DNA of 61,553 nucleotides, taken from Candidatus Parcubacteria bacterium. GTDB taxonomy: Bacteria; Patescibacteriota; Minisyncoccia; Phycocordibacterales; Phycocordibacteraceae. A program made the position numbers and the translations under genes. Under the pieces are notes generated by a model. That model ran no database searches. It was not told the origin of the DNA and saw only the letters and a program-made list of their open reading frames with translations. The stretch is from the NCBI GenBank assembly GCA_021731495.1, contig JAKFXG010000002.1, forward strand, positions 1 to 61,553, written 5' to 3'. Shown here one piece after another: positions 2,815 to 28,599 of this stretch (its first letter is position 1; each line of letters starts with the position of its first letter).

Positions 2815-3387
2815 CTACGAGCCGCTTTGTATACGCTCCGCCGCAACAAAAGACGTGTAGTTAAACTTCAGGTCCTGGATGCTCTCCTCAAGCACTTCAA
2901 GGCCGTAGAGGTCGGCTGCGGTGCGGGAGGCTATCACCGCCGTTGTGGGCGGGAGTAGCCCGCTCGCTAAATCTCCCGCCGCCTTTGCTGTATCCGCATA
3001 CTCCTCTAGCTCCACACTCGGCCACTTTCGTTTCAGGTACATGCGGCACTGCTTCAGAGCTTGGTCATGTGAGGTAATTGTCGTTATTTGATCTGGATTG
3101 GTTCCTGGCATGACGAGCAGGTTTTGGTGCACATCAATCTCAAATATTTTCTTTATCTGGAACCGATGCTTGGCCATAGCCTGGACCGCTTCGATAACGA
3201 TACCTCCGTTTGAGTTTTCAATGGGAAAGACGCCCAGATCGATGTCCCCCGCTTCAAGAGCTGCCAGTACTGGCTCGGCCGATATCAAGTAGTTGAGTTC
3301 GAGTTTAGTAATGTTCTCTTTCATCGCATATACGCGTGCCGCCTCTTCAGAAAAGCTCCCTTTCCCACCCATAATCCCGATTTTCAT
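2815..3387 (-). CDS. pheA: prephenate dehydratase, catalytic PDT domain only (no ACT domain)
   Basis: GSFSEEAA, PIENSNGG, TSHDQALKQC and IASRTAADLYGLEVL..IQD..N.TSF motifs. Start MKIGIMGG at 3387; about 190 aa. Confidence 0.8.
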   Translation of the reverse strand: MKIGIMGGKGSFSEEAARVYAMKENITKLELNYLISAEPVLAALEAGDIDLGVFPIENSNGGIVIEAVQAMAKHRFQIKKIFEIDVHQNLLVMPGTNPDQITTITSHDQALKQCRMYLKRKWPSVELEEYADTAKAAGDLASGLLPPTTAVIASRTAADLYGLEVLEESIQDLKFNYTSFVAAERIQSGS

Positions 3388-5129: not shown

Positions 5130-5270
5130 TCCGCAAAGTCGGACTGGCTAGACCCATTTAGGCCGATATGGCTGGCACATTCTGTCAGAAACAAAGTCGG
5201 GGTGCGGAGAATCGGACTCCGTCATCTTAAATTTCTTATGGAAATTTCCACAGAAGTCTCCCAGACTTCT

Positions 5271-5416
5271 GGTCACAACATTTTCTAAACCAACTATTTA
5301 GTCACACTGTCGGGGTGCGGAGAATCGGACTCCGTCATCTTGCTCCCAAAGCAAGCGTACTACCGGTATACGACACCCCGACACTGCGACCAAAAATCTA
5401 AGAAAATGTTGTGACC
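5271..5416. mobile_element. 146-bp unit bounded by perfect 16-bp inverted repeats that carries the intact tRNA-Pro (MITE-like, tentative)
   Basis: GGTCACAACATTTTCT at 5271-5286 is the exact reverse complement of 5401-5416. Confidence 0.4.
5310..5380 (-). tRNA. tRNA-Pro (anticodon UGG), no encoded CCA, T-loop TCCGATT
   Basis: Acceptor CGGGGTG/CACCCCG, anticodon arm CTTGC-TTTGGGA-GCAAG, T arm CGGAG-TCCGATT-CTCCG. Confidence 0.85.
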
Positions 5417-5431
5417 CCAAAGCAAGCGTAC

Positions 5432-5499
5432 TACTGCCAAGCGAGCCGAGCAACAAGTGAATTCCAATTCATTTGTTCGAGGCGAGCGAAGGGAGAAAG
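5432..5499. repeat. about 68-nt hairpin repeat, copy A (TACTGCCAAGCGAG...GGGAGAAAG), inside the D-loop of the broken tRNA-Pro
   Basis: Its first 14 nt are identical to 28501-28514. The central hairpin differs in sequence but still pairs, and the 3' block GAGCG..GG.AGAAAG is shared. Confidence 0.5.
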
Positions 5500-5578
5500 C
5501 TCTGCTTACCGGTATACGACACCCCGACTTTACTTCTGAACCCGCGCATCCCAGCCCATCTGGTCCACCATATCATCA

Positions 5579-5998
5579 TCAGACGATTTGTGGCAGATAG
5601 GAGACACGAGCCGTACCGTCTCGACGACGCATCCACACAAGGATTCCATCCACTTGCCAATCCCCTCCCCAGTTTTTCTCAAGAACATACCACTCCCCTG
5701 TTCGGGCAACCTTTCGCACCTTCGCCTCGTGGAGATTCAATGATGGGTCATAATCGTCATTTGCACTTTTTTCATCACGAAACTCGTCCACAAGTATCGT
5801 CTTAACTTCAACAAAATGAAGGGTGTTCTCCTTCTCCACAATGAGATCGAGTTCACCCGTCTTTCGTGCGATATTGCGATCGCGAACACTGAATCCGTGT
5901 CGCTTAAGGTACTCGGCCGCAATGCTTTCCCCAAGTGCGCCAACCTCTTTTCGGCTCTTAGAAGAAATGTCCACGGCCCGGTCAGTACAAGATGGCAT
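5579..5998 (-). CDS. YraN-family (UPF0102) endonuclease-like protein
   Basis: GALGESIAAEYLKRHGF...ELDLIVEKENTLHFVEVKT is typical of YraN. The start is uncertain (5998 or 6040). Confidence 0.7.
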   Translation of the reverse strand: MPSCTDRAVDISSKSRKEVGALGESIAAEYLKRHGFSVRDRNIARKTGELDLIVEKENTLHFVEVKTILVDEFRDEKSANDDYDPSLNLHEAKVRKVARTGEWYVLEKNWGGDWQVDGILVWMRRRDGTARVSYLPQIV

Positions 5999-6235
5999 TA
6001 CTCCCCGTGTCTGCCTTGTTAGTAAGTTCCACGAACCCATTATTGTTTACGAGTGGAATGCGAGCAAGTCGTATTCTGGAGTTGAAGACACTATGCCATC
6101 TTGTCCTACCGGGCACGGCCTTTAGAAATGCGGCTCATTTGTTAAGTATTTCATAGACTTATCAAAAAGTCTGATGTCCTTTATCCCCAGTACTAACAGG
6201 TTTATCCACTTCCAACACAAAACGAAAAGACACAC

Positions 6236-6599: not shown

Positions 6600-6832
6600 T
6601 TCAGGCGACATGATACCATGCCACCCTTTCATTTTTCCAGTGCCCCAACCAGGATCGCGATTACGCTTATCGAAACTTACAGTTTCAGTACACTTCATTC
6701 AGCAGAATGACTCTTGGAGTACGCGGATTTTCTCTTCGCGCAAACGCTCGATAAAATGCTCGCAAAGTCTTCGATTCCTGGCCGCACGTCCCCCAGACGT
6801 GCTTCGGGGCACATCCTCGCTATGTTCGTATG

Positions 6833-6904
6833 TGCCCCGACCAGGAATCGAACCCAGAATTCGACGTCCGAAGCGTCGCGTGATATCCGTTTCACCATCG
6901 GGGC
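6833..6904 (-). tRNA. tRNA-Arg (anticodon UCG), no encoded CCA
   Basis: GCCCCGA/TCGGGGC acceptor, D arm GTGA-AACGGATA-TCAC, anticodon arm CGACG-CTTCGGA-CGTCG. Confidence 0.85.
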
Positions 6905-6961
6905 TAAAACGACACCTTGTGTCGTTCGCCCGAACATTTCACCTTGCAAAATGTTTTAGGG
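6904..6961 (+). repeat. double-hairpin palindromic element, copy e (intergenic, abuts the tRNA-Arg 5' end)
   Basis: CTAAAAC-[GACAC/GTGTC hairpin]-GTTCGCCCGA-[ACATTT/AAATGT hairpin]-TTTAGGG. Confidence 0.65.
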
Positions 6962-7021
6962 CGTACCTGCATACTACTACTAAGCGAGCCGAGACACGAG
7001 CAATTATGCTACGATTCTCAC

Positions 7022-8821: not shown

Positions 8822-9634
8822 TTATAAGAACGTTATGGAAAGAGGGCAGTGGTCCGAGCCATAAATGTCAGGGTGGATTTCTGCCTTTTTGATCCGCTTC
8901 ATGAACTCACTTGCGACGAAGAAGTAATCGATACGCCATCCAACGTTTCTATCACGCGCGCGGATCTTCATATCCCAATACGTATATGCGTCCTTAGTCT
9001 GAGGGTGGAAGTGGCGGAATGAGTCCACGTATCCCGCCGCAACGACTTCGTCTATCCACGCCCGCTCTTTCGGCAAAAAGCCTGTATTTTCTTCGTTTTC
9101 TTTCGGTCTTGCGAGGTCGATCTCCTCATGGGCCGTGTTCACATCGCCGCAAAATATGACCGGTTTCTGCTTGCGCAGCTTCTCTGCAAAGGTGAGAAAG
9201 GCATCATAATATCGCAGTTTATAGTCGAGTCGTTCGGGACCCTGGCCACCATTGGGGAAGTAGATGTTCAAGAGCCAGAAGTCTTCAAATTCAGCCCCGA
9301 TGAGCCGACCCTCCTGGTCGAATTCCCTTATACCCAGGCCATAAATGACTTTCAAGGGTTCGACCTTGGAATAAATGGCGACGCCGCTATAACCTTTCCT
9401 TAGTTGCGAGGAAGAAAAGAATGACGAGAACCCAGCAGGGGAGCGCATGGCCTCCGGAATCTGTTCGGGACTCGCTTTAGTCTCCTGGAGGCAGAAAATA
9501 TCGGGCTTGGTGCCCTTCAAAAAAGATTCCCAATAGCCATTATTTGCAAGGGAACGCAGGCCGTTTACATTCCAGGAGACGATCTTCACTGGACTATTGT
9601 AGCGCAGGTCGGGTCTAATTCCGACTTTTCCCAT
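8822..9634 (-). CDS. xth: exodeoxyribonuclease III (AP endonuclease)
   Basis: VKIVSWNVNGLRS, QETK, GDVNTAHEEIDL, SDHCPL motifs. Start taken at the Met at 9634; overlaps the Xer gene stop. Confidence 0.9.
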   Translation of the reverse strand: MGKVGIRPDLRYNSPVKIVSWNVNGLRSLANNGYWESFLKGTKPDIFCLQETKASPEQIPEAMRSPAGFSSFFSSSQLRKGYSGVAIYSKVEPLKVIYGLGIREFDQEGRLIGAEFEDFWLLNIYFPNGGQGPERLDYKLRYYDAFLTFAEKLRKQKPVIFCGDVNTAHEEIDLARPKENEENTGFLPKERAWIDEVVAAGYVDSFRHFHPQTKDAYTYWDMKIRARDRNVGWRIDYFFVASEFMKRIKKAEIHPDIYGSDHCPLSITFL

Positions 9635-10535
9635 GGTACTTCTTATGGATTTCGCGGAGGTGCGAGTCTGTGATGTGCGTGTAAATCTGCGTTGTGTTGA
9701 TAGAGGCATGGCCGAGGAGCTGCTGGACGGAGCGAATATCGGCGCCGTTACTCAGTAAGTCAGTAGCAAACGCATGGCGAAGGGTATGGGGCGTGACCAC
9801 ATTCGTAATACCGGCCCGCGTAACATATGCCTTCAAGTGGCGTTGAACGTCGCGGGGGATGATGCGATGCAATTTATTCGGCCTACCGTCTACAAAGAGA
9901 GCTTCTTCCATATCGTTTCGTGCTTTCAAGTATTCGCGTACGGCTTCTTTGGCAGCAGGGGAGAGGAAGACGACGCGCACCTTCTCACCCTTACCGCGTA
10001 CGGATAGCTCGTCGCGTGAGAGGTCAATGTCAGAATTGAGCGCGCAGAGTTCAGACACACGCAGTCCGGTTGAAAAGAGCATCTCAAGGATAGCGCTGTC
10101 TCGCAGGTACATGCGCTCTTTGTCGGGGTCTTTTGCCTTTTTAAATGCTTCTCGCGGTGCCTGCATGAGGCGCTCAAGTTCGGTAGGGGTGATTAGGTCC
10201 AGCTGTCGCTCAGGAAGCTTCGCAAGCTCTATTTTCTCAGGAGAAATGGCGGGAATATCGCGTTTTCTGAGGAATTTGAGGAAAGCGCGCAGCGCGATCA
10301 TGTAGTAATTCTGGGTCCGGCGCTTCATGGAACCGGCAGCCGTACCCGGCTGCCGGTTGAGCCAGAGCCGGAACTCGCGGACATTCTGCTCAGTGATGTC
10401 ACTCACGTCTTTTATGCCCATCTGCGCGAAATAGCGGGTGAGATACCGGTCGTAGTTTTCAATCGTTTTCACCGCGCGGCCGCGCTCGATCTCAATATGC
10501 TCAAGGAATTGGCGTTTTGCCGTCTCGGCGTTCAT
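9615..10535 (-). CDS. tyrosine site-specific recombinase, XerC/XerD type
   Basis: C-terminal HTLRHAFATDLL...GADIRSVQQLLGHASINTTQIYTH. Start at MNAETAKRQFLEHIEIERG. Confidence 0.9.
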   Translation of the reverse strand: MNAETAKRQFLEHIEIERGRAVKTIENYDRYLTRYFAQMGIKDVSDITEQNVREFRLWLNRQPGTAAGSMKRRTQNYYMIALRAFLKFLRKRDIPAISPEKIELAKLPERQLDLITPTELERLMQAPREAFKKAKDPDKERMYLRDSAILEMLFSTGLRVSELCALNSDIDLSRDELSVRGKGEKVRVVFLSPAAKEAVREYLKARNDMEEALFVDGRPNKLHRIIPRDVQRHLKAYVTRAGITNVVTPHTLRHAFATDLLSNGADIRSVQQLLGHASINTTQIYTHITDSHLREIHKKYHGKSRN

Positions 10536-10699
10536 TAAAAGTAGTTTAACACTGTACTTCGCACAATATTCAATGTTATTGATAGGTATAGTAGTCACGT
10601 GTATGATTAATCTCAGAAGCACCCTGACTCCACTTACGGATAAAGGGTCTCGTTTGTGCCAAACTTAACCCAGTAAATCCTCATTAAGGAGGAGTCATC

Positions 10700-28500: not shown

Positions 28501-28567
28501 TACTGCCAAGCGAGTGAGTGAAAAAGAAATTCCCATTTCGTTTTTCCGAACGAGCGCTGGTAGAAAG
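28501..28567. repeat. about 67-nt hairpin repeat, copy C (TACTGCCAAGCGAG...GGTAGAAAG), in the fusA 5' region
   Basis: Shares 14 identical 5' nt and a similar 3' block with 5432-5499. The central hairpin is of different sequence. Confidence 0.5.
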
Positions 28568-28599
28568 ATGCCGGAGGCAGCTTATTTTTTATCTAATTT

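Follow-up and report, generated by a model that had tools for sequence, protein, structure and literature searches.

The stretch of DNA analysed here (the window: 61,553 nt of contig JAKFXG010000002.1 from a Candidatus Parcubacteria bacterium) contains, between an S1 protease gene (+) and the gene for YraN/UPF0102 (-), a tRNA-Pro locus in which an intact tRNA-Pro(UGG) gene lies nested within the pieces of a second tRNA-Pro (Table 1; coordinates refer to the plus strand of the window, and the sense strand of the tRNA is the minus strand). The locus was compared with related loci and contigs (L001-L110), among which L001-L080 have a tRNA-Pro between protease and YraN. Its features follow one another as tRNA-Gly(tcc) (-), protease, tRNA-Pro, YraN, tRNA-Gly(gcc) and tRNA-Arg, an order that is kept in most of 80 GTDB genomes, although in some of them the last two are placed or oriented differently. 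The typical locus among about 80 genomes holds one simple tRNA-Pro, located 7-8 nt 3' of a TGnTAnnAT-type motif. Genes for RarA, prephenate dehydratase, the CCA-adding enzyme, ExoIII and XerC/D also surround the locus.

A tRNA-Pro gene within the pieces of another

An earlier note on this DNA, made from its letters, had described an intact tRNA-Pro with perfect 16-bp inverted ends, same-strand fragments that tile all but 3 nt of it in collinear order, a 72-nt hairpin element in the D-loop break and a hairpin whose loop reads GGG, and our analysis recovered each of these. First, ARAGORN, one of the checks proposed there, called a tRNA-Pro(tgg) at 5309-5380 (-), in agreement with Rfam; the gene has no encoded CCA, its T loop reads UCCGAUU (C55), and it is presumably the only working copy. 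It is enclosed in a 146-bp unit by a perfect inverted repeat (16/16 bp, GGTCACAACATTTTCT, at 5271-5286 and 5401-5416), and inside these arms a second repeat of 13/14 bp runs on into the acceptor stem. Second, a repeat search together with a k-mer scan located outer pieces that are exact copies of 20, 19 and 33 nt in the order and on the strand of the gene. The first two share GTA in the D loop, and all that the three together are missing is A38-G39-C40; chance would not be expected to produce exact repeats of 19-33 nt within 800 nt. The 3' repeat (5196-5228, 33 nt with one trailer nt) copies 5309-5341 and reaches 38 nt at 95% identity, and the pieces are separated by inserts of 72 nt (5506-5435) and 187 nt (5415-5229). 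Third, the GGG-loop hairpin proved to have 8 bp, and TGGGAG at 5258-5263, which forms its loop and 3' side, may represent outer positions 34-39. Segment g, to which this hairpin belongs, has no homolog in the other loci; L010 likewise shows a hairpin and then (G)TGG after its right arm. As a separate observation, C55 in the T loop (UCCGAUU and similar) replaces the almost universal U55 in 16 of 79 tRNA-Pro genes, the window's included, and a C55-type tRNA-Pro is often the sole copy at its locus.

Leader/trailer complementarity prolongs the acceptor stem of both the inner gene (21 nt) and the outer copy (20 nt). The complementary flanks of the outer copy, TCAGAAGTAAAGT and ACTTTGTTTCTGA, match the inner-cassette flanks of L010, L084 and L039, including the GAATGTGC that follows. 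On the basis that the outer copy of the window thus carries L010/L084 inner-cassette flanks, we take the outer tRNA to be a cassette that was invaded again. A third, outermost layer can be proposed tentatively: its 5' remains begin 8 nt past a -10-like motif, the same spacing as that of the 5' end of the outer tRNA in L084, and its 3' remains, which nhmmer did not detect, lie just before the convergent stop codon of the protease. In most loci a motif of this -10-like class precedes tRNA-Pro, or what is left of its oldest copy, by 7-8 nt, and we infer that the copy at 5567-5575 is the promoter for the whole nest.

Mis-assembly of tandem tRNA-Pro copies, collapsed or chimeric, had been raised in the earlier note as the alternative to a real nest, and the source is indeed a metagenome-assembled genome (MAG) with repeats. 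However, these repeats are at most 33 nt long, which is below usual assembly k-mer sizes, and three further assemblies, made from other samples, hold homologous nests. Moreover, the arrangement recurs identically in the near-identical MAG GCA_021733385.1 (99.978% over 9129 nt, 2 mismatches, 0 gaps), and a Logan contig from the same strain ends within the 33-nt repeat, a stop that a real repeat would cause. Mis-assembly of the nest is very unlikely, and we assign this explanation a probability close to nil.

Table 1. Positions of the parts of the tRNA-Pro nest in the window and of the 'E' inserts in related loci
Feature	Position	Strand	Remarks
Layer 1, intact tRNA-Pro(UGG)	5310-5380	-	71 nt to discriminator A73; Rfam tRNA 52.8 bits
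Leader of inner cassette (d)	5381-5415	-	outer arm (5401-5416) and inner arm prolonging the acceptor stem; starts GTCACAA right after outer G37
Trailer of inner cassette (f)	5271-5309	-	complement of the leader: 13/14 pairs (2 G.U), then 16-bp arm; ends ...GTGAC(C)
Segment g	5229-5270	-	8-bp hairpin (5251-5271), then 29 nt of filler
Layer 2, piece a, CGGGGTGTCGTATACCGGTA	5507-5526	-	nt 1-20; identical to layer 1; preceded by a GT leader (2 nt), to 5528
Layer 2, 72-nt element (b) in the D loop	5435-5506	-	flanked TA...(G)TA; hairpin
Layer 2, piece c, GTAGTACGCTTGCTTTGGG	5416-5434	-	3' strand of the D stem through G37 (nt 18-36 of the gene string); identical to layer 1
Layer 2, piece h, AAGATGACGGAGTCCGATTCTCCGCACCCCGA	5197-5228	-	positions 41-73 (with the trailer nt 5196, nt 40-72 of the gene string): end of anticodon stem, variable loop, T arm, 3' strand of acceptor; identical to layer 1
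Leader of layer-2 cassette (L), TCAGAAGTAAAGT	5527-5539	-	homologous to the inner-cassette leader of L010/L084 and to the L039 leader
Trailer of layer-2 cassette (R), CTTTGTTTCTGAC	5184-5196	-	forms 11 Watson-Crick and 2 G.U pairs with L; same sequence as the L010/L039 trailer; GAATGTGC follows in both
Tentative layer 3, 5' remains, TGGGCTGG then GATGCGCGGGT	5540-5558	-	by-eye comparison with L084, L010 and L039; weak
Tentative layer 3, 3' remains, T-arm-like CCAGTCCGACTTTGCGG	5131-5147	-	by-eye comparison with the outer 3' piece of L010; weak
Extended -10-like motif TGATATGGT (TGnTAnnnT)	5567-5575	-	directly after the YraN stop codon (5579-5581); candidate promoter of the whole nest
'E' insert, L009	6065-6235		
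'E' insert, L020	7289-7391		
'E' insert, L021	7140-7316		
'E' insert, L026	7154-7338		
'E' insert, L028	1046-1207		
'E' insert, L029	7475-7638		
'E' insert, L034	5658-5829		

Nests, relics and alleles in related genomes

Comparison of the locus across genomes, which the earlier note had also recommended, revealed similar nests in L010, L084 and L083. All three share an old 5' piece, a D-loop element of the 72-nt type, a middle piece and a hairpin-flanked intact tRNA-Pro after nt 36/37, with the outer gene on the L083 contig represented by the middle piece only. L084 and L083 were retrieved by a metagenome scan for the junction of element and middle piece that gave four matches in all; the other two, L081 and L082, were discarded as unrelated coding sequence. 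In L010, the promoter is followed by CGGGGCGTAGTATACCG, an element of 74 nt that shares about 80% identity with 5435-5506 of the window, GTAGTACGCCTGCGTGGG and GTCAGAAACAAAGT, and then by the intact tRNA-Pro (1 nt from that of the window), ACTTTGTTTCTGAC, a hairpin and GGGGAG-ATAGACCGGGTCCGATTCCCGGCGCCCCGA. The outer gene of L010 is a different allele whose acceptor (CGGGGCG/CGCCCCG) and T stems are self-complementary and whose anticodon arm is broken, which argues that it was formerly a separate functional gene and is now dead. L084 holds an inner cassette as in L010 within yet another outer allele, and the cassette of L083 is diverged. The junction TTTGGG/GTCA is common to the window, L010 and L084, and that of L083 lies one base earlier (TTTGG/TGATCA).

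Lesser relics were found at other loci. A stub of the native allele lies between the promoter and a CGGGGTG-type tRNA-Pro in L013, L015/L016, L002, L039 and L061; it reads CGGGCCG-AAGTACGCCTG in L013 and CGGGCCG..CCTGC in L015/L016 and L002, and L039 and L061 retain remains of the middle piece of the old gene. In L017 and L026 we observed displaced 3' halves of tRNA-Pro that begin in the anticodon loop.

The alleles themselves do not follow their hosts. The tRNA-Pro of the window is identical (71/71) to the sole tRNA-Pro of L013 and of L079 and 1 nt away from that of L002, as from that of L010, and it differs by 15-18 nt from that of its neighbours on the protease tree; the hosts that share this tRNA have a protease only 48-61% identical to that of the window. 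L008, a close sister of L013, has the native allele at the same place within the same flanks, and 15 of its 71 nt differ from the allele of L013. In addition, the module of promoter and tRNA-Pro is inverted between fixed convergent neighbours in 15/78 loci, repeatedly among close relatives: orientation differs within the sister pairs L003/L037, L020/L045 and L049/L055, and the flip takes essentially the whole intergenic spacer (e.g. L003 versus L037). Both allele and orientation of tRNA-Pro are thus incongruent with the host tree, and tRNA-Pro of this clade is, on this comparison, a hot spot of replacement with incomplete erasure.

The homologs of the protease all come from MAGs of Patescibacteria/Paceibacterota/Kaiserbacteria, the best one outside the 99-100% cluster of the window strain itself being 65% identical over its full length, and the protease of the window strain is one residue apart from that of the indexed strain. 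A phage origin of the window was considered and rejected: blastn gave only tRNA-sized or short unannotated matches, and the genes are those of a Patescibacteria chromosome.

Several further observations were made around these loci. Directly 3' of tRNA-Pro, seven loci carry 'E' inserts of 100-190 nt that are followed by a repeat of the gene from T loop to 3' end (Table 1). Within each insert lies the local T loop with its stem, copied in inverted orientation and covarying with the tRNA of that genome; all inserts end in ..GTGACC, which pairs with GGGGTCGCG, and none has an Rfam match. The repeat starts directly after GTGACC in 6/7 of these loci, with about 20 nt between in L034; in L009 and L029 it also covers 9-13 nt of the trailer, and L029 has CGGGCCGGAG and about 165 nt upstream. 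The same layout recurs at the window's tRNA-Arg(tcg) (6832-6904, -), which is surrounded by debris within 6641-7000. Upstream of this gene lie a repeat of its first 4 nt, GCCC (6959-6962), a 54-nt insert (6905-6958) and, at about 6970-7000, a truncated 3' end of the 72-nt element and then GTAGTATGCAGGTAC, which resembles a tRNA-Pro relic; downstream lie an inverted T-arm copy (6770-6781) and a degenerate 3'-end repeat, GATCCTGGTTGGGGCA (6641-6656). YraN/UPF0102 (5579-6040, -), a putative PD-(D/E)xK nuclease present at all loci, has a conserved C-terminal extension (..GEWYVLEK.WEGEWQVDG..VWLRR.DG...V.YLPQIV); its stop codon abuts the tRNA-Pro promoter, and this constant adjacency to an unstable tRNA-Pro site may be coincidental. 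Finally, a perfect 40-nt palindrome (1328-1367) between the open reading frame (ORF) at 621-1211 and the RarA gene, which emerged as a self-reverse match against L104, may be a bidirectional terminator.

The leader/trailer stem, the 72-nt element and rival readings

We aligned the leader/trailer stems of six cassettes (L010, L039, L061, L083, the inner cassette of the window and its layer 2), in which 13-14 bp extend past the 7-bp acceptor stem. In this alignment 88.9% of leader/trailer cells are paired, both sides have changed in 9 of 15 pairs, the covariation score was matched by 0/500 shuffles, and slid partners pair in only 30-46%. Positions inside the stems that are not Watson-Crick pairs are G.U in 9 cells and A.C in none, which points to a constraint on the sense RNA and not on a DNA hairpin. 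G[GA]TC[AG] is retained at the stem's base, indicating that the cassettes are diverged homologs. Such stems were found at tRNA-Pro only (4/78 loci, versus 0/206 other tRNAs), leader/trailer pairing is absent at the three other tRNAs of the window, and a small hairpin lies 3' of the right arm in 3 of 4 sequenced right flanks. Together, these data point to the leader/trailer stem being a selected RNA structure. It may be a processing stalk, which an RNase III-type enzyme would cut to free the inner tRNA from a read-through transcript.

These properties bear on the first reading offered by the earlier note, a tRNA-carrying miniature inverted-repeat transposable element (MITE) that inserted into and replaced its own target. 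Insertion and replacement are largely supported by the homologous nests and the different outer alleles of L010 and L084; the identification as a MITE is not shown, there being no second copy of the ends in the sequences searched and no clear target-site duplication. In its strict form this reading posits that the 146-bp unit (or the 100 nt of L-tRNA-R) is moved by a transposase in trans, carries tRNA-Pro by chance and prefers the tRNA-Pro anticodon loop. It would accommodate the perfect 16-bp terminal inverted repeat, the related termini GTCA[G/C]AA...TT[C/G]TGAC with their shared junction, the small size of the unit, its lack of an ORF, and flanks unrelated to the local sequence. However, the 16-bp ends match only their own two arms in the 61-kb window, match nothing in 84 related loci and give only unpaired chance hits in IMG/VR; no clean target-site duplication adjoins the arms, although TGGG recurs in the TGGGAG 8 nt from one of them, and no transposase was detected nearby. 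Furthermore, the supposed terminal repeats are continuous with the acceptor stem, admit G.U but not A.C and covary, which fits an RNA stem better than a transposase site. We therefore regard a true MITE as unlikely. Similarly, the L flank has no other copies in the window or in the loci, and a 25-mer from the tRNA 5' end is absent from IMG/VR.

The note's second reading, repeated integration scars, accounts for part of the structure. According to it, elements with a tyrosine integrase and replacement tRNA segments hit the anticodon loop (the T loop in relatives) and were later deleted nearly wholly, leaving duplications like those of attachment (att) sites. The 33-nt 3' fragment downstream of an intact gene and the breakpoint in the anticodon loop do form the classical pattern (PMC9897764, PMC3293823), the repeats of L009 and L029 run from T loop to 3' end and into the trailer, and a XerC/D-like recombinase gene lies at 9615-10622. 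By contrast, 3'-type integration makes no 5' and middle fragments such as those upstream of the inner gene, and at least two elements, each cut down to less than 100 nt, would be needed. Only 80 nt without an ORF separate the 3' repeats here, a 187-bp circle is implausible as an integration substrate, and the 0.5-3-kb gaps between protease and tRNA-Pro in 19 loci contain no integrase or element genes (TrmB, MscS, pirin, HD and radical-SAM were found). We consider this origin improbable, a shade more so than that by a MITE.

The third reading, a functional precursor with several intervening sequences, found no support. Here the outer pieces would be exons or, in a weaker form, the outer shell would be a tRNA-like processing scaffold. 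Indeed, the breaks fall at archaeal intron sites (37/38, the D loop at about 20/21 and, among relatives, the T loop at 56/57), both the window and L010 retain an intact outer acceptor stem and T arm, and the whole region folds very stably (5180-5545 of the minus strand, 366 nt: -156 kcal/mol, z = -9.6). The host, however, is a bacterium, and the missing A38-C40 would leave a mismatch in the spliced outer anticodon stem. Pairing resembling a bulge-helix-bulge (BHB) motif reaches 7/8 at both insertions but is as good or better in 69% of random junction pairs. An Rfam scan of 5130-5580 returned, apart from the tRNA, two sub-threshold microRNA-precursor hairpins (E = 0.41 and 1.8); neither a group I core nor another intron family was among the matches, and a Pfam scan of ten ORFs close to the locus showed no EndA-like protein. 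The outer pieces have decayed in relatives: the outer 3' anticodon stem is absent from L010, and six other loci keep stubs only. The 72-nt element, finally, also occurs in contexts other than tRNA. A spliced gene has very little probability.

This element belongs to a dispersed family of structured repeats, with about 20 homologs detected by nhmmer. Besides the one in the nest, copies lie at 28504-28568 (-) of the window and in L003, L004, L005, L008, L013, L018, L021, L022, L026, L027, L049, L054, L055, L059 and L060. The family keeps conserved positions 5' of tRNA-Arg, 5' of the protease gene, and between the stop codon of another gene and a terminator. The consensus consists of TAAGC-loop-GCTT-CTCCC, a covarying hairpin with the loop GAAGA, and CTCGGCTCGCTTGGYAGTA; in RNAalifold the conserved flanks pair to give one long irregular hairpin with a conserved lower stem and a covarying upper hairpin. 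Rfam has no family for the element or for the 187-nt insert. L010 and L084 carry it at the same D-loop site, in L083 it adjoins the middle piece at the contig end, and copies outside tRNA-Pro often have D-arm-like flanks (..TACCG / ... / GTAGTAC). The link between element and nest may reflect co-conversion with the cassette, an insertion that is specific for TA sites or confined to dead copies, or inheritance from a common ancestor.

The reappearance of the element is accounted for if an L010-type nest was doubled locally, by unequal recombination or template switching, with no second import. Crossovers of a' with tRNA nt 1-20 and of nt 41-72 with h' predict the order L a b c (stem tRNA stem) g h R g', and there is resemblance between d and L (GTCA.AA), between f and R (TGAC) and between g and g' (AGAA.GT and a hairpin). 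On the other hand, the tRNA pieces are 100% identical and d/L, f/R and g/g' are barely recognisable as related, so that strong divergence along with conversion of 20-33-nt pieces would be required; the perfect 16-bp arm suggests youth, and the outermost layer lacks the 72-nt element. Such a local rearrangement is, in our estimate, a poor prospect, placed between the MITE and the integration scars.

Probable serial replacement and known systems

We favour, as the probable explanation, that only the inner gene works and that the remaining copies are left over from serial replacement through insertion into tRNA-Pro. Read from the sequence, the function of the inner gene, its promoter, read-through transcription, RNase III-type processing and the driver of the overwriting would fit together as follows. 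The inner gene would belong to a family of self-contained tRNA-Pro cassettes, with an acceptor stem prolonged by a covarying leader/trailer duplex of 13-30 bp. In several related genomes a cassette of this kind interrupts an older tRNA-Pro past nt 36/37, within the anticodon loop, and so kills it. At the window's locus, a still older gene would first have given way to an L010/L084-type cassette (flanks TCAGAAGTAAAGT / ACTTTGTTTCTGAC), which was then itself overwritten; the outer pieces would be 100% identical to the inner gene because this second overwriting took place in the same way. Transcription would start from the promoter upstream of the oldest remnant and pass through the debris, and the long duplex would serve as the stalk at which an RNase III-type cut, followed by RNase P, 3' trimming and CCA addition, yields the inner tRNA. 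At the DNA level, overwriting would amount to import of a tRNA-Pro cassette or allele with incomplete removal of the resident copy. Cassette homing is one candidate mechanism of import; others are homology-facilitated illegitimate recombination following the uptake of DNA, and unequal recombination at the locus.

A candidate driver, offered as a lead only, is a free-standing, phage-type HNH (homing-like) endonuclease encoded upstream of tRNA-Pro in six related contigs. In L079, a zinc-finger HNH ORF (3119-3293, -) ends 5 nt upstream of the tRNA-Pro that is identical to the window's, and its homologs P0123-P0127 in L106-L110 are always directly upstream of tRNA-Pro. The ORFs (132-145 aa) end 0-5 nt before the tRNA, and that of L106 (3779-4177) overlaps its start; YraN precedes them in L106, L108, L109 and L110, and the upstream gene is not identifiable in L079 and L107, where the contig ends. 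They match HNH endonucleases of phages in PHROGs (E = 5e-30 and 2e-24), and a PDB sequence search gave spurious zinc-finger matches only. We hypothesize that the HNH enzyme may cut tRNA-Pro alleles, with repair from an imported template.

Several points weigh against serial replacement or parts of it. The Pfam HNH score is below threshold (19.5 bits versus a cut-off of 21.4), no HNH gene is present in the window or in any nested locus, and no nesting is present in the HNH-bearing loci. The inner-cassette flanks d, f and g have no homolog in the related loci and so point to no source for the inner cassette, and unequal recombination of the inner gene with the outer pieces could produce the same three-layer order with no import. 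At the stub-only loci the junction varies from about nt 31 to 37, so a strictly site-specific mechanism is not shown. The 72-nt element is present in every nest with a readable outer D-loop region, an association that serial replacement does not account for. Lastly, the protease tree is a single-gene neighbour-joining tree, and a scan for sigma-70 promoters and terminators gave no match at the locus, where the promoter is a motif only.

A more far-reaching version of serial replacement is that a selfish homing tRNA cassette targets the anticodon loop of its own family and carries a processable spare copy in a hairpin stalk, which would offset the damage; introns and inteins, by contrast, splice themselves out. 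The spare copy would then be a target again, giving rise to Russian dolls and letting one allele spread over divergent Patescibacteria, and its driver may be the free-standing HNH endonuclease. We hold this version to be doubtful, if worth keeping in mind.

The nest can be set beside known systems. Fragments of tRNA genes are known as att duplications of integrating elements (PMC9897764), and an archaeal tRNA-Thr is disrupted by a recombinase-bearing element (PMC3293823). As in these cases, partial copies lie beside an intact gene, the breaks are in the anticodon loop (or, in relatives, the T loop) and incoming DNA restores function; unlike them, the 187-nt insert has no integrase and brings a whole tRNA instead of a 3' segment, 5' and middle fragments are left, and the nesting occurred at least twice. 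Williams reportedly described, in 2002, anticodon-loop and T-loop sublocations of integration in tRNA genes. Archaeal and algal tRNA genes can be disrupted by multiple introns, split or permuted (PMC3218864, PMC4090602, PMC3728597). They share with the nest the breaks at 37/38 and in the D loop (plus the T loop in relatives) and the idea of an origin from mobile DNA, but the nest is bacterial and has no BHB, its 'exons' are incomplete and decaying, and rescue would come from the spare copy in the insert and not from splicing.

Group I introns occur in the anticodon loops of bacterial tRNAs. The window resembles them in horizontal spread and in having a bacterial tRNA gene broken within its anticodon loop, after G37, and differs in that its insert is only 187 nt long, has no ribozyme core and contains a tRNA. 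Free-standing homing endonucleases drive the inheritance of neighbouring tRNA genes, as phage T4 SegB does in a tRNA cluster, and blastn matches included HNH genes beside tRNA genes (tRNA-Gly) in Streptomyces phages. The phage-type HNH ORFs upstream of tRNA-Pro and the alleles at odds with the host tree are reminiscent of homing, which, however, normally leaves no nested debris, and no such gene lies in the nested loci. Bacterial MITEs such as Correia/NEMIS, RPE and Nezha likewise measure less than 200 bp and have terminal inverted repeats and no ORF, whereas the unit of the window is single-copy as far as searched, carries a predicted functional gene and has repeats that behave as an RNA stem. 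Finally, RNase III cuts the processing stalks of rRNA operons and intervening sequences, including the rRNA insertions typical of bacteria of the candidate phyla radiation (CPR). In both situations a long leader/trailer duplex surrounds a stable RNA in a longer transcript; the duplex of the window encloses a tRNA, and its cleavage is a prediction.

Nested tRNA genes or CPR tRNA introns were not found described for bacteria in the literature searched, where the closest cases are the tRNA fragments of integrated elements (PMC9897764, PMC3293823) and the disrupted tRNAs of archaea (PMC3218864, PMC4090602). The nest is real and uncommon; we see in it a variant form of insertional disruption of tRNA genes, and there is a modest chance that it represents a new type of selfish cassette. 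It provides a clear example, from a bacterium, of a tRNA gene broken at the canonical 37/38 position as well as in the D loop, to which relatives add the T loop; all of these are archaeal intron sites. Its history is still readable, with layers of different age in one locus and intermediates in related genomes. For tRNA annotation in MAGs, it is a practical reminder that miscalls can result from fragments, nested copies or 3' repeats. For CPR bacteria, it documents the horizontal replacement of a core translation gene, and it offers a concrete system for the origin of disrupted tRNA genes by mobile DNA entering their loops, with a spare copy as the alternative to splicing.

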